Positions 48,655 through 62,334 of a stretch of DNA of 64,000 nt are shown here, in pieces. Source of the stretch: Candidatus Hydrogenedentota bacterium (GTDB lineage Bacteria; Hydrogenedentota; Hydrogenedentia; Hydrogenedentales; SLHB01); the NCBI GenBank assembly GCA_963668025.2, contig CAXXTH010000017.1, positions 1,024,001 through 1,088,000 on the forward strand, read 5' to 3'. How positions within the stretch are numbered: the first letter of the stretch is position 1; each line of letters starts with the position of its first letter. Below the pieces are notes generated by a model. It saw nothing but the letters and a program-made list of their open reading frames with translations, was not told the origin of the DNA and made no database searches. A program made the position numbers and the translations under genes.

Positions 48655-50097
48655 TCACTCCCAATCCATGCCGTATTTTTGAAGGCGGTAGCGGAGCGAA
48701 CGGGGGGTGAGGCCGAGCAATTGGGCGGCCTTTTTTTGGGAATAGCGGGCGCGTTCGAGCGCTTGCTTGATCAGGTTGATCTCGATATCAGCCACATGGG
48801 TTTCTAGATCGAGCCCTTCCATGGGGAGCTGGCCCGGGGGGCGAATCGCGGAAACCGCCGTGGGCGCGGCGTTGTCGCTTGCATATTGCTGGACATTTGC
48901 CGGCAGATCATTCACGTCGATGCATGCGCCGCGGCACAGTGCAACGGCCCTTTCCATGATATTCTCGAGTTCCCGGACATTTCCCGGCCATTTGAAACCG
49001 CAGAGGCGCTCTTCCGCTTCGGGGGTGATATCAAGGGGCTTGCGTCCCATTTTGGCCGCGTGGGCGGCGGCGAAATGGCGGGCAAGCAGACGTATGTCGT
49101 CTCCCCGGGTGCGCAGTGGGGGCACAGTGATAGGGATGACATTGAGGCGGTAGTAGAGATCCTCGCGGAACTTGCCTTCCTTGGCCATTTGTTCGAGGTT
49201 CCGGTTGGTGGCGGATATGATGCGGACATCCACGGGGATGGCTTTTGTGCCGCCTACAGGCGTCACAATGCTGATATCGAGGACGCGCAGGAGTTTGACC
49301 TGGAGCGGCAAGGGCATTTCGCCAATCTCGTCCAGGAAAAGCGTGCCGCCGTTGGCGACGACAAACAGCCCTTCCTTGCGCTCGACAGCGCCCGTGAAAG
49401 CGCCCTTTTCATGGCCGAACAGTTCGCTTTCGAGTAGGTTTTCCGGGAATGCGCCGCAATTGATGGCTACGAAGGATACGGATGCGCGCTGGCTGAGCTG
49501 GTGGATGCCCCGGGCGACCAGTTCTTTGCCGGTGCCGCTTTCGCCATGGATGGCGATGGTGCTCGATAAGGTGGCCACGCGGCGGATCATGGTGCGCACT
49601 TCTTCGATGACGGGGCTGTTGCCCACGATGTTATCGAGCTGGCCGCGCAGGGCCTGGTCTTTGCGCAAGGCGGTGTTTTCGCGTACGAGGTCGCGCTGTT
49701 CGATGGCGCGGCGGATGATGATGCGCATTTCATCGTTTTTGAAGGGCTTCATGATGTAATCGGCGGCCCCCCGCTTCATGGCCTCGATGGCCACCTCGAC
49801 GGAGCCGTGGGCCGTCATCATGATGGCGGGGGTATTGGAGGCGTGTTCGGCGATCCAATTCAGCAGCGCCATGCCCGCATCGCGCTGGGTGCCCATGCGA
49901 AGGTCCGTGACGACGCAGTCAAACGTGGAAGCTTCTAAGCGGGCTTGGGCCTGGGACACATTGGCGGCGGATTCGACTTCATACCCATCGTTCTGCAAAA
50001 CGATCTCGAGCAGCTCACGCATGCCGCTTTCATCATCGACCACGAGAATGCGCGCTTTTGCGGGCTTATTTACTCGTTCCACCCCATGTGCCGCCAT
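48655..50097 (-). CDS. pilR: Sigma54-dependent response regulator, PilR-like
   Basis: Receiver + GESGTGKE + GAFTGA + WPGNVREL + Fis HTH (RSLRYRL); pil context. Confidence 0.85.
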   Translation of the reverse strand: MAAHGVERVNKPAKARILVVDDESGMRELLEIVLQNDGYEVESAANVSQAQARLEASTFDCVVTDLRMGTQRDAGMALLNWIAEHASNTPAIMMTAHGSVEVAIEAMKRGAADYIMKPFKNDEMRIIIRRAIEQRDLVRENTALRKDQALRGQLDNIVGNSPVIEEVRTMIRRVATLSSTIAIHGESGTGKELVARGIHQLSQRASVSFVAINCGAFPENLLESELFGHEKGAFTGAVERKEGLFVVANGGTLFLDEIGEMPLPLQVKLLRVLDISIVTPVGGTKAIPVDVRIISATNRNLEQMAKEGKFREDLYYRLNVIPITVPPLRTRGDDIRLLARHFAAAHAAKMGRKPLDITPEAEERLCGFKWPGNVRELENIMERAVALCRGACIDVNDLPANVQQYASDNAAPTAVSAIRPPGQLPMEGLDLETHVADIEINLIKQALERARYSQKKAAQLLGLTPRSLRYRLQKYGMDWE

Positions 50098-50103
50098 AAT
50101 CCG

Positions 50104-51738
50104 TTATTCTCCGAAGCGGGCCGCGGGCAGCCGCACGATGAGCGACGCTCCGTGTTCCCGGCGTGATGTGACATGAATAGTGCCATCATGAGCCGAGATA
50201 ATCCGCATGCACACGGCAAGGCCCATGCCGACCCCCGATTCTTTGGTAGTATAGAAAGGCTCGAAGATCCGCGCAACCTCATCCGGTGGAATGCCCGGGC
50301 CTTCATCCTCGAATACGACCGCCACCGATACCTGATCCCGCGAAGCGGAAATGGTGAGGGTTCCGTTTTCATTCATGGCTTCGACCGCGTTTTTGCCGAT
50401 ATTGATGAACACTTGCTTGAGCTGGGCGCGGTCGCCTGAGATAGGGCAATGCTCCGCGCCATGCTTGAGTTCCATATGGAGGCCGTTTCCGTTCACGCTG
50501 CGCTGGAGCAAGCCAGCCACTTCATCGAGGAGTTCCCATAAATCAAACGGATGGCGCTCCATGCGGGGCTCCCGGGCGAAATCGAGGAACTCGCTGACAA
50601 TATAGTTCAATTGGTCGCATTCGCGCATGGCGATGCTAGTGAGGCGGCGCGCCAAGACTGGTTCTTCCATCGAGCGTTCTAGTTCCTCGATAGCGCCGCG
50701 GATGGCGGCCACCGGATTTCGGATTTCATGGGCAAGGCCCGTGGACAATTCGCCCACTGCCGCGAGGCAGTCTTGGCGTTTGAGTTCATCGCGCATGATG
50801 GCCAGCTCGGTGAGGTCGCTGAAGGCGACGATGCTGCCGTTCAGGATGCCTTTCGAGTCATACATGCAACTGGTGCTTAAACCGAGCAAGCGGACATCAT
50901 CTTCGCCGATAATCGCCTCGAACTCATACCGGGTATAGTCGCGCCGGGTGCGAATCGAAGTAAGCACCGGGCATTCGCCGCTGGCGGCGGTGCGAAGCAC
51001 TTCTTGGACGGGCAGGCCGACCCCTCCGCCTTCTTCGAGCGCCAAGATGCGGCAGGCGGCTTTATTGAGAACCATCACGGCGCCTTCGGCGTTGGTGATG
51101 ATGAATCCGTTATTCATGTTGTCCAGGATTTCGCGCTGGAACTGGTTCAAGCGGCGCACCCGTTGGTTCCAATAGCCGCTAATCGCGGCGGTGAGGTAAT
51201 ACGCCAGGCCTTGTACGGCGAATTTGTAGGCCATGTCGGGAATGGCCTCGATTTGCCAAGCATCCCATCCCACCACATGCCCGCCGAGTGGCGATGAAGT
51301 CATGACTTGAATCGCCATGAACACGGTGGCCAGCGATGCGAAAACAAATCCTTGCGCGGGGCTTAACAGCAGGCTGGCTTCCAACACCACCACGACGAAC
51401 AGGAAAGTGGCGAAACTGTTCGAGCCGCCCGTGAAACTGATGGTGGCGGCCACGACGCAGAAGTCCACCAGCATTTGCGCCCAGGTGAGCAAGGTGGCCT
51501 TGACCAGCGGCCCGCGCACGAGCGACGCCAGATACCAGCAGCAACTGATGAATCCGAACAGATAGAAGCCGCTGAGGAGCCCGAGGCGGAAGCTGCTGGC
51601 GTCGTCCATGAGGATATAGGCGCCCAAGGCCATGAACAACAGCACGCCCACGCGGATGGCTCCGACATACCACAGCCAAACGGCGGGGCCTTCAATGGAA
51701 ACCCGGAAAAGGTCGGCGGAGTTGGGCCGTTTCTTCAC
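50104..51738 (-). CDS. pilS: Sensor histidine kinase, PilS-like
   Basis: About 6 TM helices with TGG..S.F, PAS, AHEIRNP, N/G/F boxes; adjacent to pilR. Confidence 0.82.
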   Translation of the reverse strand: MKKRPNSADLFRVSIEGPAVWLWYVGAIRVGVLLFMALGAYILMDDASSFRLGLLSGFYLFGFISCCWYLASLVRGPLVKATLLTWAQMLVDFCVVAATISFTGGSNSFATFLFVVVVLEASLLLSPAQGFVFASLATVFMAIQVMTSSPLGGHVVGWDAWQIEAIPDMAYKFAVQGLAYYLTAAISGYWNQRVRRLNQFQREILDNMNNGFIITNAEGAVMVLNKAACRILALEEGGGVGLPVQEVLRTAASGECPVLTSIRTRRDYTRYEFEAIIGEDDVRLLGLSTSCMYDSKGILNGSIVAFSDLTELAIMRDELKRQDCLAAVGELSTGLAHEIRNPVAAIRGAIEELERSMEEPVLARRLTSIAMRECDQLNYIVSEFLDFAREPRMERHPFDLWELLDEVAGLLQRSVNGNGLHMELKHGAEHCPISGDRAQLKQVFINIGKNAVEAMNENGTLTISASRDQVSVAVVFEDEGPGIPPDEVARIFEPFYTTKESGVGMGLAVCMRIISAHDGTIHVTSRREHGASLIVRLPAARFGE

Positions 51739-52808
51739 GCGCCTCCTCGTTCGATGAGGCGCTGAAGGCCTTCTGGATCGTGGCTGCTCTTGAAGGCGGT
51801 TTCCATGGTGATGAGGTTGCGCCGGAGCAGGCGGAAGAGGGATTGGTTCATGGTGATCATGCCTTCGCCAGCGCCGATTTCGATCATGGATGGGATTTGT
51901 TCGAGTTTTTCTTCGCGCATGAGCGAGCGAATGGCCGTGTTGGGTATCATGATCTCGAGGGCGATGACCCGCCCGCGGCCGTCGGCCCGGGGGAGAAGTT
52001 GCTGCACGACCACGCCCTCGAGCACAAAGGACAACTGCGTGCGGATCTGGGCTTGCTGCGCGGCGGGAAACACGTCCACGATGCGGTTGATCGTTTGGAG
52101 AGCGTCGTTGGTGTGCAAGGTGGCGAACGCGAGATGGCCCGTTTCCGCCGTGGTGATGGCCGCCGAGATGGTCTCGGGATCGCGCATTTCACCGATGAGG
52201 ATCACGTCGGGGTCTTGGCGGAGCACATGGCGCAATGCGGCGGCGAACGACTTGGTGTCCGCATGCACTTCCCGCTGATTGATGACGGAATGGTTATGCC
52301 GGTGCAGGTATTCGATGGGATCCTCGATGGTGACGATATGTACGCTGCGTTCGCGGTTGATGCGGTCGATAATCGAGGCCAGGGTCGTGGATTTACCGCT
52401 GCCGGTGGGGCCGCAGACGAGGATCAATCCGATAGGGCGGTGGGCGAAATCGGCCACCACGCGCGGCAGGCCTAATTCATCGAATGAGCGAATCTCGAAT
52501 GGAATCGCGCGGAACGCCGCCGATATGGAACCCCGGTCGCGGTAGACATTTAAGCGGAAGCGGCTTAGCCCCGTGATGCCAAAGGAGAGGTCGCATTCCT
52601 TGTCGGCTTCGAACGAGGCCACTTGTTCTTCATTCATGACGGAGTACGCCAATTCTTGTGTATTTTCCGGGCGCAAGAGCGGATATCCTTCCAGGGCTTG
52701 AAGCGCGCCATGGACACGGACAATAGGGGGCACGCCGACGGAGATGTGCAGGTCGCTTGCACCCATTTCGATGGTCTTGGTGAGTAGTTCCTTGATGCTC
52801 AGTTCCAT
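51735..52808 (-). CDS. pilT: Type IV pilus retraction ATPase
   Basis: ASDLH, GPTGSGKSTT, TIEDPIE, AETGHL, AIRSLMRE. Confidence 0.96.
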   Translation of the reverse strand: MELSIKELLTKTIEMGASDLHISVGVPPIVRVHGALQALEGYPLLRPENTQELAYSVMNEEQVASFEADKECDLSFGITGLSRFRLNVYRDRGSISAAFRAIPFEIRSFDELGLPRVVADFAHRPIGLILVCGPTGSGKSTTLASIIDRINRERSVHIVTIEDPIEYLHRHNHSVINQREVHADTKSFAAALRHVLRQDPDVILIGEMRDPETISAAITTAETGHLAFATLHTNDALQTINRIVDVFPAAQQAQIRTQLSFVLEGVVVQQLLPRADGRGRVIALEIMIPNTAIRSLMREEKLEQIPSMIEIGAGEGMITMNQSLFRLLRRNLITMETAFKSSHDPEGLQRLIERGGA

Positions 52809-52960: not shown

Positions 52961-53251
52961 CTACTTTCGAGTTCCCGATACGGCTTGTGTATGCATGCAG
53001 GTTGTTTGTGTATTTTCGATTTCTTCGTAAATGGTCTCTGGGGCGATATCCGCGCCATTTGGCCAAGTGATAGCGCCACCTTCAATAGCAGTCATTTTGA
53101 AAAAAGCTATTTTCCGAAGCGGCTCAAATACGGCGCCTCTATTCACCCATTTAGAAAAATCGACTTCTCCCATTAATCCATTATCGAATTCGATTTCGTA
53201 GGTGTATTGTGATTTATAGCTAATCCTGACAATATCGTTGAGATTCCACAT
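52961..53251 (-). CDS. DUF2442-family protein (putative TA partner)
   Basis: I.FDNG..G.VDF...G.VFEPL...F....GG.I.WPNGADIAPE.IYE. Confidence 0.85.
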   Translation of the reverse strand: MWNLNDIVRISYKSQYTYEIEFDNGLMGEVDFSKWVNRGAVFEPLRKIAFFKMTAIEGGAITWPNGADIAPETIYEEIENTQTTCMHTQAVSGTRK

Positions 53252-53257
53252 CAATCT

Positions 53258-53731
53258 TTACTCCAAAGGCGCTATCTGATTTATTAGCGTGCATTGGCTG
53301 GCTCGTTCCCAGTTCTCCTGTACTTCAATTGCATGCAGATCGATCCATTCTCGAACGAGTTTAGTTGCCGTTTTCGATTGTAGATCACCGGCTAAAATAT
53401 TACCTCGAAAGTCAAACAATGCTTTTACTCCATACTAATATCTGGCAAAACGTTATTTTCTTGAGAAGATTCTCTTGGGAAACCAATATGTATTAACTGG
53501 TTAGAACTTACGATTTATATATTATCATGGCAGATGTATCCTTTGAACGGTGGGGCAAGCCCCACCCTACCTTTAAAATTTTAGTGTAATTAGTGTATTT
53601 CGTGGTTTAAATATCCGAATCTTTGGTTGCGGCTGCGCCGCGCTATGATATTCTATGTGGAGATTTGGGGGATTATGATCTTCATAAAACAATCGGACGA
53701 CAATCCCGAAAAACATAGAAATCACAGGTAT
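53258..53731 (-). pseudogene. DUF4160-family gene split by a 213-bp insertion; start codon reads ATA
   Basis: 5' half PVISMFFGIVVRLFYEDHNPPNLHIEYH (53731-53645); 3' half GVKALFDFRGNILAGDLQSKTATKLVREWIDLH...IAPLE* (53431-53258). Confidence 0.85.
53549..53570 (-). repeat. Second-class GTAG REP
   Basis: Minus strand GTAG-GGTGGGGC-TT-GCCCCACC. Confidence 0.75.
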
Positions 53732-53765: not shown

Positions 53766-55505
53766 TTAATCCGCCGCAGACACGCGCAGCACTTCTTCGA
53801 TGGTGGTCATGCCATGAGCGGCCTTGGACAGGGCGTTCTGGCGCAAGGTGCTCATGCCGCATTCGATGGCGCGCCGTTTGATGTCGCTCGAGGTCGCGCG
53901 TTTCATGACCAATTCCTGGAGTTGCGGATAATTGGGCATGGCTTCAATGACCGCGAGGCGGCCGCTGTATCCGGTGTCTTTGCATTTGGCGCAGCCGCGC
54001 CCGCGCACGAATTGCGGGGGCGGAGCGCCTTCAGGATGGCGGTATTGGATGCGCTGGAGCACTTCGTCCGGCACTTTGATGGTCTGTTTACAGTTTGAAC
54101 AGACCTTGCGCATCAGGCGCTGCGCCGCCGCGAGGCCCACGGAAGATTGCACGAGGAAAGGCTCGACGCCCATATCGGTGAGGCGGGTGAATACGCTTGC
54201 GGCGTCATTGGTGTGCAGGGTGCTCAGCACCAGGTGGCCGGTAAGGGCGGCCTTGACCGCGATATCGGCGGTTTCTTCGTCGCGGATCTCACCCACCATC
54301 ACGATGTCGGGGTCTTGGCGCAGAATACTGCGCAATGAGGCCGCGAAGGAGAGGCCGATTTCGGAATGCACCTGCACTTGGTTGATGCCGAACAAGTCAT
54401 ATTCGACGGGGTCTTCGACCGTCACGATATTGCAGTCGGGTTTGTTGAGCTTGTGGAGTGCGCTGTAGAGCGTGGTGGTTTTGCCGCTTCCCGTGGGGCC
54501 TGTCATCAAGATCATCCCAAAAGGGAGCTTCAAGGCGTCATTAAACGCTTCCATAGGCTGTCTTTCGAAACCTAGGGCGTCCAGGTCAAGGGTCAGATTG
54601 CCCTTGTCTAGAATACGCGCCACGATCTTTTCGCCATGGGAGCAGGGCAAAAACGAAATACGGAAGTCGACTTCGCGGCCCTTATATTTAATGCGGAACC
54701 GGCCGTCTTGAGGAACGCGGTGTTCCGCGATATCGAGGTCGCTGAGGATTTTGAACCGGGAAGTCAAGGCGGCTTGGACGCTCTTCGGGGGGTTTTTGGT
54801 TTCCTCGAGCATGCCGTCGATACGGTAGCGGACGCGTAGTGTGCGCTCGAAGGGCTCGATGTGAATATCGCTCGCGCCGGAATCGAGGGCACTGGCGATA
54901 ATAAGGTTTACGAGCCGGATGACCGGGCCTTCTTCCGCCTCGAGTTTGAGTGTGCCGATATCGCCAATGTCATCTTTTTCCTCGATGACATCCAATGTGT
55001 CGCTGACGCCGTCATCCGCTAAAAGCTCGTTATAGAGTTCCGAGTTTTGTTTGCCGCTGTAATGGCGGTTGATGGCGGCGCTCAACTCGGACGCCACGGC
55101 GACAACAGGCTCGATCTCATAGCTGGTGAGCATGCGGAGATCGTCGAGCGCCATGATGTTGAGCGGGTCCGACATGGCAAGGGTGAGCACGTCGCCGGTC
55201 ACGGAGACGGGAAGCATTTGGTATTGGCGGGCCAGGGATTCGGGCACTTCATTGAGCACTTCCTGGGCGATTTTATAATTGGCCACCCGGATATGGGGTA
55301 TGCCGAGCTGGTCGCTGAGCGTCACGACCAAGTCTTCCTCGCTGAGGTAGTTTTTGCTGAGTAAAATGCTGGCGAGGCTCTGGCCGGTGGCGCGTTGTAT
55401 GCTGACGCATTCGCGCAGTTGTTCGTCGGTGATAAGCCCCTGTTCGAGAAGGACATCACCCAGCCTGCGCTTGGCTGTTTTTGTCAATTTTCGGTCTCCT
55501 GCCAT
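53766..55505 (-). CDS. pilB: Type IV pilus assembly ATPase (PilB/GspE) with N-terminal MshEN-like domain
   Basis: RLGDVLLEQGLI, ASDIHIEP, PQDGR, GPTGSGKTTTLY, tetra-Cys motif. Confidence 0.93.
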   Translation of the reverse strand: MAGDRKLTKTAKRRLGDVLLEQGLITDEQLRECVSIQRATGQSLASILLSKNYLSEEDLVVTLSDQLGIPHIRVANYKIAQEVLNEVPESLARQYQMLPVSVTGDVLTLAMSDPLNIMALDDLRMLTSYEIEPVVAVASELSAAINRHYSGKQNSELYNELLADDGVSDTLDVIEEKDDIGDIGTLKLEAEEGPVIRLVNLIIASALDSGASDIHIEPFERTLRVRYRIDGMLEETKNPPKSVQAALTSRFKILSDLDIAEHRVPQDGRFRIKYKGREVDFRISFLPCSHGEKIVARILDKGNLTLDLDALGFERQPMEAFNDALKLPFGMILMTGPTGSGKTTTLYSALHKLNKPDCNIVTVEDPVEYDLFGINQVQVHSEIGLSFAASLRSILRQDPDIVMVGEIRDEETADIAVKAALTGHLVLSTLHTNDAASVFTRLTDMGVEPFLVQSSVGLAAAQRLMRKVCSNCKQTIKVPDEVLQRIQYRHPEGAPPPQFVRGRGCAKCKDTGYSGRLAVIEAMPNYPQLQELVMKRATSSDIKRRAIECGMSTLRQNALSKAAHGMTTIEEVLRVSAAD

Positions 55506-55825
55506 ATGGCGTCCCCCCAGGTGCGCCCAATATCCGAACGCACTGGGCATAGCCCAGGCGGCTTACTTGGGCAACGAAGCTATTATCTCATATTCCAGCG
55601 TAAAACGTGTAGTGGCGGATTACTCCCCAAATCACCCGATACGGTTTTTTGTATCATACTTGATAGCGTTACAACTCAATCTAGGCAATCACTTTTAACG
55701 CAAAGGCGCGGAGAACGCGGAGGTCCGCAAAGTAGAAAAATCATTTTCAAACAGTTTTTCGCACCTTCGAGAGTGAACTCCGTAAGCGGCAATGGAGAAG
55801 AGCGGATTCTCGGCGGCGCTTCGGA

Positions 55826-58144
55826 TTATTCCGTAACGTCTTCGCCGATATGTCCGAGTATTTCGCCCACGAGGTCCGCCGTGACGGTTTGCCCCATGAG
55901 ATCGGCATACGCGATGATTTTGCGGAGTGCGCCGGTCATTTTGCGCACGTCGCTCGAGACGCGGGTGGCGATGAGCACCAGCAGTTCTTCGGGCACATTC
56001 GCGCTGGCCTGTTTGACTTGGTGGCGCAAGATGCTGAGGCGGGTTTCCCATTCGGGAGGGACGAGGCAGGTGACGATACCGCTGCCGAAACGGGAGACGA
56101 GTCGTTTTTCGAGCTGGCCGAGCCGGTCGGGGGCTTTATCGCCGGCGATAATGATTTGGCGGCCTTCTTCGTGGAGGGTGTTGAAGATGTGGAAGAATTC
56201 TTCTTGCGCTTCGATGCGGCCGCCCAGGAATTGGATGTCATCGAAAATGAGGACATCCCATTGGCAATAGTTTTCGCGGAATTCATCCAGGGTGCGTTCT
56301 TGAAGGGCGTCCATGAGCTTGCGTGCGAAGCGGCTTGATGAAACAAACCCGACGCTGGCATCCGGCTCGGATTGGAGGATGGCGTTGCCGATCGCGTTGA
56401 TCAAGTGGGTTTTTCCGAGGCCTACGTCGCCATGAACAAAGAACGGATTGTAGCTTTCTCCGGGATTTGCGGCCACGGCGGTACTGAGGCGGAGGGCGAA
56501 TGCATTGGCTTTTCCGCAGAAAAACGTATCGAAGGTATAACCGGCGAGGGGGGATTCCGACTCGAGGGCCATTTGGATGCGGTCGTCAATATGAAGCTTG
56601 ACGCCGGGGCCTTCCATGGCTTCGAGGATATCTTGTTCAGTTTTTCCGAGCAGGGCGGCGGCTTGGCGGCGTTTGCGCTGGGCTAATCCGCCATGTTGGA
56701 GCGAGCGGCGGGTGAGGGTGCTGACGGAAGCGATTTCAACTTGGTCGGCGGCGCGCTGGGCTTCTTTTTCCGCGCGGGAGGCGGCCTCTTGTGCGGCTTG
56801 GGTGGCGGCGAGAAGCTGGGCGGTTTGGTTTTCCTGGCTGGCCATGGCGGTCTGAATGGCGGCTTGCGCGGCCTGTGCGGCCTGCATGGCGGCTTCCGTG
56901 AGCTGGGCCATGCGCGCTTCCTGCGCCGCTTGGCTGAGCTGAATGGTTTCGAGTGCTTCGATGGCGGCGCCGCCCAACGGTTCGCGGTTCAATTCTGTTT
57001 CAGGCTGGCCGGCTGTTTCGGCTTTGGAGAGAAGCGACTGAGCGCGCAGCATCTGGGCCATGTCGCCCAGGGCTTCCCGCATTGCGTCGCGCAGGCTGCC
57101 ATGCATCACCTGCGCAAGCTCCTTTGGCGACGGCCCGGCGGGCGGGGCGCTTTTCACCACGGTGCTCATGGCTTCTTTCATGGCGTCTTGCAGGGTGGCG
57201 CGCATCTCGCTCACGACGGCGCGCATGGTGGCTTCCGGCGCGTCGGACGCCCGGGGCGTGATGCTGGATAGGGAGTCGCGCATGGCTTCCCGGACGCTTT
57301 CGCGCATGATGGCCGCGATATCGGCCGCGCTGGGCGTAGTGGAAGCAGGCGCTCGTTCGGCTGCACGGCGCACTTGCTCGGCAATGGCGAGGGCGGCGTC
57401 TTGCATGGCCCCGTGGACGCTTGCGCCCACGGCGCGGGCTAATTCCTGCGTGTCAATCGCAGGGCCTTGCGTAAAGTAAGCGTGGCGTGGCGGCGCTGTT
57501 TCCAGCGCTGTTTCGATTGCTTCGTTTTCCTCTTCCTCCTGCGGAAGAATTGGCTCGGGCGGTGGGGCGGGCGCTTCCTCTTGGGGAGGGAGATGCCGCA
57601 AGGCGGCCAATCCGAAACTGGCCATGCTGGTTTCTTCCGCGGATTCTTGGGAGCGCTTGAATAGGCGGCTGGCCACCTGAATGAAGTGGTTGTATTCGCA
57701 TAAAATGGGCTTTATTTTCAGATCGGGGCATGCCGTACGCACTAATTCGAGCGCCCGATCATCCAGGGGATCCACCATGGCGACGGTGAGGATCTTCCCG
57801 AGTCTATCAATGGGCAGCACGCCATGCTCGAAGCAGGTTTCGGCGGGCATGAGGGAGAGAATGTCTTCGGCAATGTGGTAATCGAGCAGGTTAATGTGCG
57901 GGATGCGGCATTGTTTGACGAGAAAGGTGAGCAGCACGTCTTGCTGGATATGCCCCAGTTCGACCAATGTTTGGCCTAGAAACGCGCCGGTTTCTTTTTG
58001 GCGTTCGAGGGCCTCCTCGAGCTGCTTGGGGGTGATGATCCCTTCCTCGAGCAGAATATCGCCTAACCGGCGGCGATTGGGGGTTAGGCTGTCCACACCC
58101 GGCGCGGAGTCGTCCGCGTCGTTTCTTTTCATTCGTCTAAACAT
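55826..58144 (-). CDS. MshEN/T2SSE_N domain + helical linker + DnaA-type AAA+ domain (no DnaA domain I or IV)
   Basis: RLGDILLEEGIITPKQLEEALERQ-5aa-FLGQTLVELGHIQQDVLLTFLVKQ; C-terminal YTFDTF, YNPFFVHGDVGLGKTHL, DDIQFL, QEEFFHIFN, RLVSRF, DVRKMTGAL; start could be 58195. Confidence 0.88.
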   Translation of the reverse strand: MFRRMKRNDADDSAPGVDSLTPNRRRLGDILLEEGIITPKQLEEALERQKETGAFLGQTLVELGHIQQDVLLTFLVKQCRIPHINLLDYHIAEDILSLMPAETCFEHGVLPIDRLGKILTVAMVDPLDDRALELVRTACPDLKIKPILCEYNHFIQVASRLFKRSQESAEETSMASFGLAALRHLPPQEEAPAPPPEPILPQEEEENEAIETALETAPPRHAYFTQGPAIDTQELARAVGASVHGAMQDAALAIAEQVRRAAERAPASTTPSAADIAAIMRESVREAMRDSLSSITPRASDAPEATMRAVVSEMRATLQDAMKEAMSTVVKSAPPAGPSPKELAQVMHGSLRDAMREALGDMAQMLRAQSLLSKAETAGQPETELNREPLGGAAIEALETIQLSQAAQEARMAQLTEAAMQAAQAAQAAIQTAMASQENQTAQLLAATQAAQEAASRAEKEAQRAADQVEIASVSTLTRRSLQHGGLAQRKRRQAAALLGKTEQDILEAMEGPGVKLHIDDRIQMALESESPLAGYTFDTFFCGKANAFALRLSTAVAANPGESYNPFFVHGDVGLGKTHLINAIGNAILQSEPDASVGFVSSSRFARKLMDALQERTLDEFRENYCQWDVLIFDDIQFLGGRIEAQEEFFHIFNTLHEEGRQIIIAGDKAPDRLGQLEKRLVSRFGSGIVTCLVPPEWETRLSILRHQVKQASANVPEELLVLIATRVSSDVRKMTGALRKIIAYADLMGQTVTADLVGEILGHIGEDVTE

Positions 58145-58345
58145 GCCGTCTCGCGGCTCCCTGCTGCACCTATTGCTCTGGATGAATGGTATCATTCAGG
58201 AACATGGCGGTCAAGCGATTTTCTTGCGTAACCCTTTAATCATCAATTAGTTGTCAAATGAAGCTAGCTTGAACGAGCTTGGATGTGTGATGTATGGCCG
58301 TGCATACCTGCCGCATCTGTTTGTTGTATGAAGGAATAAAATCCC

Positions 58346-58480: not shown

Positions 58481-61400
58481 TCAGGAAAAGAGCCTTTCGC
58501 GCATCAGGCAGGCGAAGCCCGCCATCAGTACGGGAAGAATGGCGGCGCGCATGGGCGCTTGGGGGACACTGTCCGCATTATATGGGTCCGTGCCGAGGGC
58601 TATTTCCACCGCGTCTGGAACGCCATCGCCATCCGCGTCGTGTGTGGGATTATAGGTGATGGTTATATCGGCGCTTCCTATTTCAGCGCCGCTGGCGTCC
58701 AGGGCGGTGATATGCAGCATATTCTGGCCAAGAATCAAGGGGAGCTCGATGCGCCATTCGGTTTCGTTTGGGGGGTGGGCGTAACGGACGCCATTCACGT
58801 CTAGTTCCGCCATGCCGGTTTCGCATGCGCCCTCCAAGGTAAAAGGGGAGATGCCAGTGGTGAAATCCTGCCCATAATTCGTGGAGATGAGCAGGGGTGG
58901 CCCGGGGCCTTCGCCGCCGGTGAGTTTGAAAATCCGCTGTTCGTTTTGCTCGAAGTCTGCACTCCAACTGGTGATGGCCGTTCCGATGAGGGCATTTGCG
59001 GTTACGTCAACGACATCCACGGGCGAGGCTCCGTCTTCGAGAATGGAAATGTCGTCGAAGGCGATATTTGTGGCGGCATACGTTCCATACACCTTCAACA
59101 ACACCCGCAGTTCGTTTGTGTAGTCGGCGGCGGTGTTCGAGAAGGTGAAATCGCCGGAAAAGGAAGTCCAGGATTTATCTTGCAGCGGCGAAGCCGTTCC
59201 CGTGGCGAGCACCGCCGTGTAGGACGCCGTACTCCATTCATGGGGTTGAAACACCAGATAGATGTAATCCGATGCGCCTGCGGCGCTGGCGTCCAGGCCA
59301 TCTATGTATACGCTGCCGGAAACGTGATAGGTTTTGCCTTGTTCCGCCTGGAGGGTGATGCCAAGCGGTTCCGAATACTGGCCGGGCGTGCTCGTGAACG
59401 GCCCTGTTTGCAGGGCGTTCGCGCCCGTATGGGCGAGCGCGCTGGTGGCGGTGCAGACAGGCAACGCGCCATACGAGGGGCTTATCCAGCAGCCGAATCC
59501 GCTTGTGGGCAGCGCGCCGGTGAATTTCTCGAAGCCGCCGTTGGGCGCTTTTTCGCCTGGAATCTGGAAGCAGCGCCTGCCGCCGCGCTCCCGCGCATAC
59601 ACATATAAATAGCGGCCATTGTAGTTAGCGGCGTCCGCCGTGCTGAGCGTGCCGGCATCCACCAGCAAGTTGATTCCGGCATACCGCGCCAGGCTCCGCA
59701 CGAGCGGAGCAGACAGGCTGGGAGCGCCGCAGAAGACGCTGTTCCATTCATTATTTTCTTGTAGCAGCAACGCGGGCAGCCCGTTGCCGCTATAGGTTCC
59801 CAGTGTGGTGAAGCCGCCTTTGGTGGAATCGCCATAAAACGAGGGGGCGATTGTGGAGGCGGACCCGAAGGCATGCCCAGCGAGGCCCTGTGCAATAGGT
59901 GATACGCCCGCCGCCATGGTGATAGTGGTATTGGCGGGCGCCGCGTTTTTCAGGAGTGGGAAGCCTGTGATGTCCTGCATATCCGCCAGCGAAAGGCCGG
60001 TTTCATTCACGTAGCCTGGCGCATACAGCCACACGAGGGTATGGCCGTTGTTTTTAGCGCCTTCCACGAGCGCCCGTTCATTCGCGGCCATGCGGAACGT
60101 ATTGACGAAAACATACAGTTTCACGCTGGATGGGATATTCGGAAGGTCTTGGATATGGTAATACCCCACGGGAACGCCGGATTCCTGGAAAACGCTCCGC
60201 TGCGCATAGGCGTTGGGCTGGGTGAGTGCGTTGCAGCCGGATTTGAGCCAGTAATAGGTTTCTTCGTCATAGATAAGGGCAACGCTTGGTTTGTAGGCCA
60301 TCGCGGCGTCAATGGAATCCTTGTAGGTTTCAGAAACCACGGCGTTGTTGCTCCAGATCGAAGGGGAGTTGAACCGCCCATCGGCCCATAGGTCCATCCA
60401 CCATAGTGCTTGATTGTGAGCGATGACATTGCCGTAATCGCGGCGCAGGCATTGCATGGTGTCCCATTCCGTCGAATACCAGGGATTAAAATTGTCCGGA
60501 TTTCCGCTGGGGTTCACCACATAGGTGTTCGAGTCGTTCTCCTGCAAGTACATTTTGCCCGAGAGCGCCACGGAATCCACCATGGACATCATGTTGCATG
60601 GCCCGCCTATTTGCCGGTCAAAATACGATACGGGGCTGCATAGGATATCGATGTCCGGCGATTCGAGGAGCCGCCGCAGGGCCAAGTGGCCCGAATGGGC
60701 GATGCCCCGGGTATAGCCGTTATTGATCAATTCGGTTTGATAGCCGTAGAAGGCGGCCACCAGGGATTTATGGCTGGTGAGCTGTTTGACGAAGGCCGCC
60801 AGCTCCGCGATGCGGTCCGCCACGAGGTTGTTATGGTATTCACAATAGTCTGGCACGGCGCGCTGTTTGGCGGGATCGCGAAAAAAGCCGTCATCGCCTT
60901 TTTGCCATTCGGCGGCGGAGGGGATGGAGATGGCGTTGAACGCGGCGTAGCTGGTTCTCCATGCGGTGTTCAGGTTCTCGATGGAGCCGTACCGTTTTTC
61001 GAGCCAGGCCACATACCGCAAGCGGTTCACTTCGCTATAGTCCCAAAAGCTAGATGCGATCTCGGGGTAGAACCACTCACCTCCGGATAGATAGGTGAGA
61101 TGATAGCCGATGATGCGGTCTTTGTAGGGCGTGTTGTGGAAAAAGCGCACCAGGCTCTCGATTTGAGCTTTCGCGTCGGTAATGAATATATCCGAGGCGA
61201 GTGAAGGCCCGGCGGCATAGGAGGTTTGCCCGCCGTTTTCGTCCACGAAGAGCTGATCGGCGTGGTTGGTTTTCCATACCGCGGAGGGGAAGATGGAAAT
61301 GCGCGGCAGAATCCATGCGTTGGGATTCGCCTGGAGCAGGAGGTCCGCCATGCCCGTGCTCATGCCCTCCCAGGGCAGATTGATGGGGATTTGCACCAGG

Positions 61401-62146
61401 TTGACGCCCGCCGACGCCGCCAGGGCGGCTTCTTCGTAGACAGCCGGATTGCCCGAATTGCCGAAGAAAAAATCGGGCGTTTGCACATTGCCGTTGATGT
61501 ACAAGCGTGGCGAGCCGTTGCGATCCCGTTTGATTTCCGCATGGGGAATGTCTGCAGAAAGCTCCCCTGGTGTGTCCATGATCTCCATGGATACGCTATC
61601 CAGGCAGGCCGCGCCCGAGACAATGCCCGTATTGAGCACCATCTGGATGTCCGCGCGGGTTGCGCCTTGCGGCAATGCACTCACGATTTCGACCGGCATA
61701 TACTCGTGGGTTCCCGCATAATCACCATTGGCGTAATGGTAGGCGAGTACTTGGCTCGAAGCGTTCCAGATGGCCACCACAAAGCGGAGGCCTTGATTGG
61801 GATTTGCCAATTGGAGGTTTTCCGTCTTGATGCAGAGCCGCACTTTCAAGAGCGAGCCTGCGGGCTGTGTGGCCACGCTTACGCCATTATGGAGAATCAA
61901 CAGGCTCTCCGTCCCGCCGAAGGCGGTTAGCGCCGCGGCATACGAGCCTTCATATATGTGGTCCGCATTGTTGGTTGTATTCCAACTCAGGGCTTGGCTG
62001 TCTGGATTGTATACGGTCCAACCGCTGGTGTTGCCTTGCTCGAAACCGCCATTGGGGAGGTTGAGCATGGCGCTCGAAGCTTCTGGAGCGCCAATCAGCG
62101 TTATGAGGCATAGAATTGCGATGGGGATGTGTGCCAGAACAAGCAT
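58481..62146 (-). CDS. Secreted multi-domain glycoside hydrolase (clan GH-A, GH42/beta-galactosidase-like) with two CBM4/9-like modules and a C-terminal anchor
   Basis: Signal peptide, two NGGFE modules, GGEWFY and QEND putative catalytic Glu, DADGDGVPDAVE..LGTDP, hydrophobic tail; AAGGAG RBS before ATG 62146. Confidence 0.72.
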   Translation of the reverse strand: MLVLAHIPIAILCLITLIGAPEASSAMLNLPNGGFEQGNTSGWTVYNPDSQALSWNTTNNADHIYEGSYAAALTAFGGTESLLILHNGVSVATQPAGSLLKVRLCIKTENLQLANPNQGLRFVVAIWNASSQVLAYHYANGDYAGTHEYMPVEIVSALPQGATRADIQMVLNTGIVSGAACLDSVSMEIMDTPGELSADIPHAEIKRDRNGSPRLYINGNVQTPDFFFGNSGNPAVYEEAALAASAGVNLVQIPINLPWEGMSTGMADLLLQANPNAWILPRISIFPSAVWKTNHADQLFVDENGGQTSYAAGPSLASDIFITDAKAQIESLVRFFHNTPYKDRIIGYHLTYLSGGEWFYPEIASSFWDYSEVNRLRYVAWLEKRYGSIENLNTAWRTSYAAFNAISIPSAAEWQKGDDGFFRDPAKQRAVPDYCEYHNNLVADRIAELAAFVKQLTSHKSLVAAFYGYQTELINNGYTRGIAHSGHLALRRLLESPDIDILCSPVSYFDRQIGGPCNMMSMVDSVALSGKMYLQENDSNTYVVNPSGNPDNFNPWYSTEWDTMQCLRRDYGNVIAHNQALWWMDLWADGRFNSPSIWSNNAVVSETYKDSIDAAMAYKPSVALIYDEETYYWLKSGCNALTQPNAYAQRSVFQESGVPVGYYHIQDLPNIPSSVKLYVFVNTFRMAANERALVEGAKNNGHTLVWLYAPGYVNETGLSLADMQDITGFPLLKNAAPANTTITMAAGVSPIAQGLAGHAFGSASTIAPSFYGDSTKGGFTTLGTYSGNGLPALLLQENNEWNSVFCGAPSLSAPLVRSLARYAGINLLVDAGTLSTADAANYNGRYLYVYARERGGRRCFQIPGEKAPNGGFEKFTGALPTSGFGCWISPSYGALPVCTATSALAHTGANALQTGPFTSTPGQYSEPLGITLQAEQGKTYHVSGSVYIDGLDASAAGASDYIYLVFQPHEWSTASYTAVLATGTASPLQDKSWTSFSGDFTFSNTAADYTNELRVLLKVYGTYAATNIAFDDISILEDGASPVDVVDVTANALIGTAITSWSADFEQNEQRIFKLTGGEGPGPPLLISTNYGQDFTTGISPFTLEGACETGMAELDVNGVRYAHPPNETEWRIELPLILGQNMLHITALDASGAEIGSADITITYNPTHDADGDGVPDAVEIALGTDPYNADSVPQAPMRAAILPVLMAGFACLMRERLFS

Positions 62147-62334
62147 GAGAACAAGCTCCTTTTCCTGAGGCGGTATGTACAGATTCATGCTACTGATTTT
62201 GGCGGTATTGCGCCTTCACAATCTCAAAAGCGAATAGGACAATCTAGCGTATCTGTGTTGCGGAAGATATTGGAATGCGTGATTTGTTTACTGGAATAGA
62301 GGGGCTAGGCCCGGCGGGAAAAACGGAAGGCTGC

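Follow-up and report, generated by a model that had tools for sequence, protein, structure and literature searches.

A c-di-GMP receptor module fused to domain III of DnaA, encoded at the head of a type IV pilus motor operon in Hydrogenedentota

The receptor module for cyclic dimeric guanosine monophosphate (c-di-GMP) known as MshEN was delineated in Vibrio cholerae MshE and PilB-type ATPases as a 53-residue unit, made up of two 24-residue motifs and a 5-residue spacer between them. The glycine at the third position of each motif makes a backbone hydrogen bond to guanine; mutation of Gly11 abrogated c-di-GMP binding by V. cholerae MshE, its G11L and G40I variants gave no c-di-GMP-induced thermal shift, and XpsE with changes that included G11V and G40L no longer bound (Wang et al., 2016, PMC5013675). 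The same study also presents MshEN as a portable c-di-GMP input on other outputs, such as NfrB-type glycosyltransferases. Here we describe a gene in which a module of this kind – instead of preceding the hexameric PF00437 ATPase, as in MshE and PilB – is followed, after a linker of 350 residues, by domain III of the replication initiator DnaA. The gene lies in 64,000 nucleotides of DNA from a Candidatus Hydrogenedentota bacterium (assembly GCA_963668025.2, contig CAXXTH010000017.1, positions 1,024,001 to 1,088,000), a stretch referred to below as the window.

To our knowledge, DnaA domain III is a replication module, and Hda – its only well-known stand-alone relative – works in replication as well. 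The evidence gathered here nonetheless favours the pilus motor over replication: regulation of that motor is the most likely function of the fusion, because its gene always comes first in the pilus motor operon. The architecture is new and uncharacterised, both as an MshEN effector and as a DnaA domain III paralogue, much as the first-pass annotation of the window – made from the letters alone – had supposed. In the literature that we found, no fusion of MshEN and DnaA is described; the main text of Wang et al. (2016), as distinct from its supplementary architecture tables, makes no mention of one, and in the only paper returned for both words, they occur solely among the references.

At its N-terminus, the fusion matches MshEN (PF05157) at residues 97–182 of the longer, 789-residue reading discussed below (5.8e-15, Pfam) and, with 65.9 bits (cut-off 38), the NCBIfam model NF053729 of the 53-residue c-di-GMP motif, which also recognises all 20 of the fusion relatives to which it was applied. 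The two motifs occupy residues 26–49 (RLG...Q) and 55–78 (FLG...Q), with the 5-residue spacer in between; the motif pair of the first-pass annotation therefore stands, save that its second copy opens with FLG and not with Arg. Conservation was counted throughout over the best 120 database relatives of the fusion. A strict regular expression finds the pair with its 5-residue spacer in 56 of them, a single motif in 39 and none in 25, and the position-3 glycines are kept in 100/120 (G28) and 99/120 (G57); position 1 of motif I is Arg in 87/120. AlphaFold2, given a 120-sequence alignment, models the N-domain (residues 23–165) with a predicted local distance difference test score (pLDDT) of ~96, and Foldseek matches it in the PDB to the N-domain of MshE with c-di-GMP (5htl_A; E 1.6e-8, template modelling (TM) score 0.70, 38% identity over 138 columns). 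These matches, along with 34% identity to the N-terminus of the adjacent PilB, bear out the earlier claim that the rest of a PilB-type N-domain is present.

The likeness to V. cholerae MshE and the PilB-type ATPases of Wang et al. (2016) thus takes in the motif pair and spacer, the MshEN_C/N1 domain, the 5htl_A match and the pilus locus. Beyond the exchanged ATPase, the fusion differs from them in the Phe at the start of motif II and in four family-specific conserved cysteines of the N1-like domain, which have no counterpart in the equivalent domain of PilB (C79 in 118/120 relatives, C104 in 120/120, C139 in 112/120 and C149 in 118/120); H153 and W151 are kept in 114/120 and 113/120. These cysteines (residues 79–149; window 57698–57910, minus strand) may, together with H153, form a metal or redox site. 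As a separate observation, the c-di-GMP receptor module is markedly expanded in Hydrogenedentota: the source genome has 12 MshEN (PF05157) matches, and related genomes have between 8 and 21 matches to the N-module profile of the fusion.

The C-terminal part, judged by sequence, is a complete DnaA domain III (residues ~520–768). Pfam places Bac_DnaA (PF00308) at residues 553–709 of the 789-residue reading (6e-58) and finds no match in the fusion to either domain IV (Bac_DnaA_C, PF08299) or domain I (PF11638); nor does it find there the T2SSE ATPase domain PF00437, which is present in the neighbouring PilB. The last 235 residues align without a gap, at 43% identity, to residues 140–374 of the 473-residue DnaA of the same genome, so that the initiator-specific motif is kept, and the alignment ends at residue 374, the start of domain IV in that protein. 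In the AlphaFold2 model, the AAA+ region (residues 520–765) has a pLDDT of ~96, and Foldseek aligns it with domain III of Bacillus subtilis DnaA (8bv3_A; E 1.3e-22, TM 0.91, root-mean-square deviation (rmsd) 2.0 Å, 44% identity) and, among other PDB entries, with that of Thermotoga maritima (2z4r_A). Walker A K578, Walker B D635/D636, the arginine finger R685 and the sensor II arginine R734 are invariant (120/120), T579 is kept in 119/120 and the equivalent of B. subtilis R281 in 118/120; such invariance of the ATPase and arginine-finger residues indicates that the domain is under selection as an ATPase, one that would oligomerise head to tail. On all these points – the four motifs, the end of the protein where domain IV would begin, and the presence of PF05157 and PF00308 without Bac_DnaA_C – the first-pass annotation had anticipated what the profiles and alignments show.

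The domain is nevertheless neither a canonical DnaA nor an Hda. Its score for the DnaA equivalog TIGR00362, 302.7 bits, falls under the cut-off of 343.9, and that for Hda (TIGR03420), 91.7 bits, lies under 194.8 (both NCBIfam). With DnaA, it shares a complete, gapless domain III at 43–44% identity, including the ATPase residues, arginine finger and sensor II; it differs from DnaA in having no domain I, no domain IV and no DnaA-box binding, in its sub-cut-off score, at several positions that contact ssDNA or the DnaA-trio and in the long separate branch described below. With Hda/HdaA – a domain-III-only inactivator of DnaA – it has in common that it is a DnaA-related AAA+ protein without domain IV, yet Hda structures match it at just 21–22% identity (21% for 3bos and 5x06) and an rmsd of ~5 Å, and an N-terminal extension of 515 residues, a pilus operon and the lack of a conserved clamp motif further set it apart.

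Domain III of DnaA binds and stretches single-stranded DNA (ssDNA), and the contacts to ssDNA and the DnaA-trio reported from cryo-electron microscopy of B. subtilis DnaA (Pelliciari et al., 2023) could be mapped onto the fusion through the gapless alignment. The equivalents of R202 and E228 are kept in 120/120 relatives and the position of K222 is basic in 108/120 (Arg in 98, Lys in 10). At four other positions the family departs from DnaA: the E183 equivalent is Ser in 110/120, the N187 equivalent is Arg in 83/120, and those of I190 (Ala in 28, Lys in 24, Ser in 17, Met in 14, and others) and I193 (Leu in 44, Ala in 17, Met in 16, and others) are variable, whereas E, N, I and I are all retained in the DnaA of the same genome. 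B. subtilis DnaA carrying I190A was unable to promote strand separation (Pelliciari et al., 2023). With these four positions altered or variable, DnaA-type DNA binding by the AAA+ domain of the fusion appears doubtful.

A quick maximum-likelihood tree of domain III (69 rows, unrooted, with support from the Shimodaira–Hasegawa-like approximate likelihood ratio test (SH-aLRT) only) was made from 24 fusions (every fifth of the 120), three divergent fusions, 17 Hydrogenedentota DnaAs and 25 DnaAs of other bacteria (taking every third among those of 430 residues or more in the search listing). In this tree, the 42 canonical DnaAs all lie on one side of a branch of length 1.51 (SH-aLRT 100) and the 27 fusion domains all on the other, and the Hydrogenedentota DnaAs form a clade (support 100) among those of other bacteria, apart from the fusion domains. 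The fusion domain therefore represents an old or fast-diverged offshoot of DnaA, and neither a recent copy of the resident dnaA nor an Hda. The separate canonical dnaA whose presence the first-pass annotation had wished to confirm does exist in the source genome, complete with domain IV.

A third, weaker DnaA-like protein of 717 residues is also encoded in this genome (G000:C17:485264–487418, corresponding to L132:5265–7418, plus strand). It combines an N-terminal Bac_DnaA-type AAA+ domain (1.1e-12) with more than 500 residues of coiled coil, is flanked by genes for TPR/PMT_2 membrane proteins, a metallophosphoesterase and FliD, and could be another case, in Hydrogenedentota, of the DnaA fold serving a role outside replication.

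The fusion gene is real and conserved in Hydrogenedentota. Among 5.8 billion proteins searched, 7999 candidates were scored and 3331 of them matched; the best 120 of these matches all contain both PF05157 and PF00308, at lengths of 567–1184 residues. Where their organism is named, it is Candidatus Hydrogenedentes or a metagenome-assembled genome of the 'FCB group', and their public names are 'DnaA/Hda family protein', 'ATP-binding protein' or 'chromosomal replication initiator protein DnaA'. A mis-joined frame or assembly chimera, a concern raised in the first pass, is ruled out, since the same architecture recurs in all 120 best matches, on contigs of up to 7.9 Mb and in independent assemblies. 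In the ESM Atlas, the whole fusion finds only its own two clusters, in which Bac_DnaA and MshEN are each present in 100% of members and Hydrogenedentota is the commonest phylum. Fusion-type AAA+ domains also occur, at 48–69% identity and with no Bac_DnaA_C, in proteins of 145–462 residues (~35 of the 120 matches listed); most of these lie on contigs of 1–4 kb and are therefore probably fragments, with few on longer ones (e.g. P0135, P0139 and P0149).

Within the phylum, 107 of 135 Hydrogenedentota genomes have an AAA+ match above any listed match to a canonical DnaA (E ≤ 1e-69 versus 2.3e-66), and three of the other 28 (G094–G096) have fusion-length frames. Five low-scoring genomes were re-examined with the N-module profile: two have the N-module in frames of 764 and 730 residues with a PilB-like frame adjoining, two a strong N-module match in a shorter frame or at a contig start, and one weaker N-module matches only. 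The fusion is represented in all 15 Hydrogenedentota families. When 185,579 species were scanned, each through a single genome, for patterns particular to the N-module of the fusion family, 132 relatives came to light; most of the best 80 are labelled Hydrogenedentota, Hydrogenedentes or Hydrogenedentales. About 20 of these 80 are otherwise labelled – mostly 'uncultured Nitrospirales/Nitrospiraceae', but also 'uncultured bacterium', Rhodothermaeota, FCB group and Bathyarchaeia – and at least four of them are contigs of genomes placed in Hydrogenedentota.

Equally constant is the genomic setting. In the window, the fusion gene is followed on the same strand by pilB (TIGR02538, 675.6 bits), a pilT-family ATPase gene, a PilS-like kinase gene and that of a sigma-54 response regulator. 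Among 20 loci picked to span 14 of the 15 families, the fusion gene is co-oriented with and directly upstream of pilB in every one – as had been noted in the first pass for the window, and as its proposed survey of architecture and synteny now extends to the phylum – and pilT, pilS and pilR then follow in 18/20, not being visible in the fetched stretch of L027 and L028. The gene upstream of the fusion in the window has a counterpart in 0/20. Of the best 80 of the 132 species-scan loci, 63 have pilB downstream, the other 17 comprising five contig ends and 12 paralogues. At one locus (L034) the N-module is divided between two frames, through a possible frameshift or sequencing error.

The PilB encoded in these operons has in turn lost residues that its own receptor would need. 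The motif I glycine is present in 17 of 18 readable fusion sequences versus 7 of 21 operon PilBs (RLP in 11), and the motif II glycine in 17 of 20 versus 0 of 21 (SLP, SLA and similar); in the two other PilB-like ATPases of the source genome (L124 and L128), both are kept. The receptor motifs of the operon PilB lie at its residues 28–80 (window 55311–55469, minus strand), the motif I glycine being lost in 14/21. As the operon PilB is without the glycines needed for c-di-GMP binding, the fusion may supply the control in trans. A prediction of the complex between PilB (21 rows) and the AAA+ domain (21 rows) gave no answer (0.00 against a mark of 0.32), and is evidence neither way.

Between the two conserved ends lies a linker of highly variable length (159–776 residues across the family), which in the fusion is modelled as long helices (residues 230–500, pLDDT 66–88; AlphaFold2), and for which a search of the ESM Atlas with residues 225–510 gave no usable match. 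A helical repeat of the type I-M-R-E-S-V-R-E-A-M-R-D-S-L is found in 95/120 relatives (median two copies) and in none of the shuffled linkers. In the linkers of L041 and L047, a helical unit of ~65 residues occurs three or four times in tandem, almost unchanged; such copies explain the spread of fusion lengths, and they point to recent repeat expansion in the linker. In most relatives the AAA+ domain is preceded by R-x-R-H-A-S-V-x-P-F (H in 81, S in 94 and V in 98 of 120), a motif that has decayed in the protein of the window (RKRRQAAALL, residues 490–499; window 56648–56677, minus strand).

The Cys-rich N-module is also found, with one similar helix ('MxDSMRDTY'), joined to other outputs in Hydrogenedentota paralogues: cNMP-binding domains at nine loci (L086, L089, L096, L099, L108, L110 and L113–L115) and PAS–GGDEF at three (L101, L104 and L109), assignments that Pfam confirmed for four of these proteins. 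None of them adjoins pilB. A profile search with the N-module over 1.84 billion representatives returned 379 proteins at E ≤ 1e-30, the best 150 of which comprise 83 with DnaA-type, 12 with cNMP-binding, six with T2SSE ATPase and two with GGDEF domains, five glycosyltransferases, one protein with a receiver domain and 41 that are MshEN-only or fragments; this census is wider than the Cys-rich subfamily, because the profile also catches general MshEN proteins. The occurrence of one Cys-rich N-module with several outputs fits a sensor or address module. An NfrB-type glycosyltransferase carrying MshEN was reportedly described by Junkermeier and Hengge in 2021; what distinguishes the present protein from other MshEN fusions is that its output is an AAA+ ATPase of the initiator clade.

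Taken together, we consider it somewhat probable that the fusion serves the type IVa pilus motor as an accessory regulator – a c-di-GMP-gated, ATP-dependently oligomerising protein that supplies c-di-GMP sensing in trans. Its N-terminal module would be a two-part copy of the N-terminus of PilB/MshE, in which the four-helix receptor senses the second messenger and the N1-like domain addresses the protein to the partner of PilB's own N-terminus, at the pilus base or on PilB itself. GspE N1 with GspL serves as a comparison. The DnaA-type AAA+ domain would act as an ATP-dependent head-to-tail oligomerisation switch, making the fusion multivalent in the way of the PilB hexamer with its six displayed N-modules, and with the repeat-built helical linker as a spacer or scaffold of variable length. 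In this way, the fusion could place both extension and retraction of the pilus under c-di-GMP control, either as an adaptor or activator or as a competing decoy (a clutch). Control of a motor in trans by a c-di-GMP receptor is known from FimX–PilZ–PilB of Xanthomonas and Pseudomonas and from the flagellar brake YcgR. The proposed arrangement would resemble these in that a separate c-di-GMP receptor controls a motor ATPase that does not itself bind the signal; their receptor folds (EAL and PilZ), however, are unrelated to that of the fusion and come without an AAA+ module.

Several points weigh against this proposal. We know of no initiator-clade AAA+ protein that works on a pilus motor. Gene neighbourhood speaks of co-regulation and not of physical partnership, and contact of the fusion with any partner is something that we infer. 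Motif II starts with Phe in 117/120 relatives, outside even the relaxed set [RKPN] of Wang et al. (2016), so that the fusion is a putative c-di-GMP binder; this Phe could stack on guanine. Furthermore, NF053729 scores 21/21 operon PilB N-termini over its cut-off and so cannot separate them from the fusion N-modules (20/20); the contrast between the two lies in the glycine positions only, and loss of c-di-GMP binding by PilB is accordingly read from single residues. Finally, since the R202 and E228 equivalents and the basic K222 position are kept, the AAA+ domain may still bind DNA.

Among other explanations, the least unlikely is that the fusion is a general c-di-GMP effector or scaffold with a target other than the pilus motor, co-transcribed with pilB via a shared signal only. 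It would agree with the unrelated outputs (cNMP-binding, PAS–GGDEF) that the same N-module drives in the paralogues, and with a repeat linker that resembles a multi-site scaffold; strict adjacency to pilB in 14 sampled families, with an unconserved neighbour on the upstream side, would nonetheless be unusual for functionally unrelated genes, and the closest likeness of the N-module is to the N-terminal part of PilB-type ATPases. Quite unlikely is a coupling to replication, in which the DnaA-type domain would co-oligomerise with DnaA, cap it or stimulate its ATP hydrolysis in the manner of Hda, so that c-di-GMP or pilus state gates initiation. Such links between pili, c-di-GMP and the start of the cell cycle are said to have been described in Caulobacter, and the fusion does have a bona fide domain III (43% identical to the genome's own DnaA, TM 0.91 to that of B. 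subtilis) and a separate canonical dnaA to act upon. The coupling is kept in play by the intact arginine finger and oligomerisation residues (120/120, and 118/120 for the R281 equivalent). Against it stand the absence of domains I and IV, the distance from Hda (91.7 versus 194.8 bits, 21% identity), the long, fully supported branch away from all 42 canonical DnaAs – with the phylum's DnaA grouping with those of other bacteria – and an operon context that is pilus-only in 20/20 loci.

Hda bears an N-terminal clamp-binding motif, QL[SP]LPL, and the first-pass annotation had seen a weak counterpart in QMALES; this candidate was rejected, as Q524 is Gln in only 6/120 relatives. With the clamp motif unconserved, Hda far off, the branch long and the ssDNA positions altered, a DnaA paralogue that acts on DnaA or the clamp under c-di-GMP gating is left without specific support, whereas the other option raised in the first pass – a DnaA fold turned to use in the pilus machine – gains from the position of the gene at the head of pilB–pilT–pilS–pilR in 20/20 loci. 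A more pointed version, in which c-di-GMP bound at the pilus base releases or activates the DnaA-type domain so that, at the origin, it joins DnaA oligomers, caps them or discharges them, is very unlikely: intact arginine-finger and oligomer-interface residues allow it, and no result requires it. Many bacteria take up DNA by means of type IV pili, and the domain might handle DNA at the pilus base, tethered to the machine and binding ssDNA taken up in natural transformation. This is the least probable of the readings: the ssDNA binding and stretching of DnaA domain III (Pelliciari et al., 2023) and the kept R202, E228 and K222 equivalents (120, 120 and 108 of 120) favour it, but the hydrophobic I190 position, on which ssDNA binding depends, is unconserved, E183 and N187 are replaced, and no competence genes occur in the operon, either in the window or in the 20 loci.

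The coordinates of the fusion gene, its parts and its operon are collected in Table 1. Its reading frame runs through 772 codons with no internal stop. An alternative in-frame ATG at 58195 would add 17 residues and give the 789-residue open reading frame used in the Pfam searches; we take 58144 as the start because the relatives begin there – with M(F/L)xR.K in the alignment – and because a sigma-70-like match precedes it. A sigma-54 promoter, as a link to PilR, was considered and rejected: a pattern scan of the window found none in the gap 5' of the fusion gene, and its 26 sigma-54-like matches in the whole window are below the 37 expected by chance.

Table 1. Positions in the window of the fusion gene, its domains and key residues, and the operon genes that follow it (aa, amino acids; nt, nucleotides)
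Feature	Position	Strand	Remark
Whole fusion gene	55826..58144	-	772-aa MshEN/DnaA-domain-III fusion; stop codon 55826-55828
Sigma-70-like promoter match, TTGACC-17-TACCAT, TG ahead of -10	58186..58214	-	42 nt 5' of start; consensus match only
c-di-GMP receptor motif pair, aa 26-78: RLGDILLEEGIITPKQLEEALERQ, 5-aa spacer, FLGQTLVELGHIQQDVLLTFLVKQ	57911..58069	-	definition from Wang 2016
MshEN_C/PilB-N1-like alpha-beta domain, aa 80-165; family-specific conserved C79, C104, C139, C149, H153	57650..57907	-	
Pro/Glu/Ala-rich stretch, aa 167-229	57458..57646	-	predicted disordered, pLDDT < 50
Variable helical linker, aa 230-515, repeated motif of type IMRESVREAMRDSL	56600..57457	-	
DnaA domain III (AAA+, initiator-specific motif, lid), aa 516-772; without domain IV	55829..56599	-	
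Walker A GLGKT, aa 575-579	56408..56422	-	
Walker B DDIQF, aa 635-639	56228..56242	-	
Arginine finger R685 (= B. subtilis DnaA R264)	56090..56092	-	
Sensor II arginine R734	55943..55945	-	
pilB, type IVa pilus assembly ATPase, next operon gene; c-di-GMP motif II without glycine	53766..55550	-	
pilT-family retraction ATPase	51735..52808	-	TIGR01420, 479 bits
PilS-like sensor histidine kinase (6TM_PilS, PAS, HisKA, HATPase_c)	50104..51738	-	
PilR-like sigma-54-dependent response regulator	48655..50097	-	

Two features of the neighbourhood are peculiar to this locus. The gap between pilB and pilT, ~950 nt here, is an insertion particular to the source genome, given that it measures ~20–250 nt in the other 17 loci with both genes; it holds (at 53261–53716 and 52961–53254, minus strand) a split DUF4160 gene, the pieces of which correspond to Pfam profile positions 1–31 and 27–65 and are divided by an insert of ~150 nt, and then an intact DUF2442 gene. 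Upstream of the fusion, in an unconserved neighbourhood, a gene for 1235 residues (58481–62188, minus strand) has weak matches to glycoside hydrolase, CBM_4_9 and bacterial TSP3 families.

Hydrogenedentota are almost uncultured, and the current public names of the family – 'chromosomal replication initiator protein DnaA' and 'DnaA/Hda family protein' – mislead the annotation of their genomes. If the fusion were, after all, coupled to replication, it would tie a second messenger, pili and the initiation of replication directly together in one protein, and action at the origin would let surface or pilus state time initiation throughout the phylum. Whichever reading applies, the DnaA domain III fold, with its ATPase machinery fully conserved and placed after a c-di-GMP receptor, has been fixed through the entire history of this phylum as the lead gene of a pilus motor operon. 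Should the fusion indeed be a regulator of the pilus motor, as we favour, it would be the first initiator-clade AAA+ module to serve as a switch on such a motor, and would represent a new route to c-di-GMP control of the motor in trans after PilB's own receptor had decayed.

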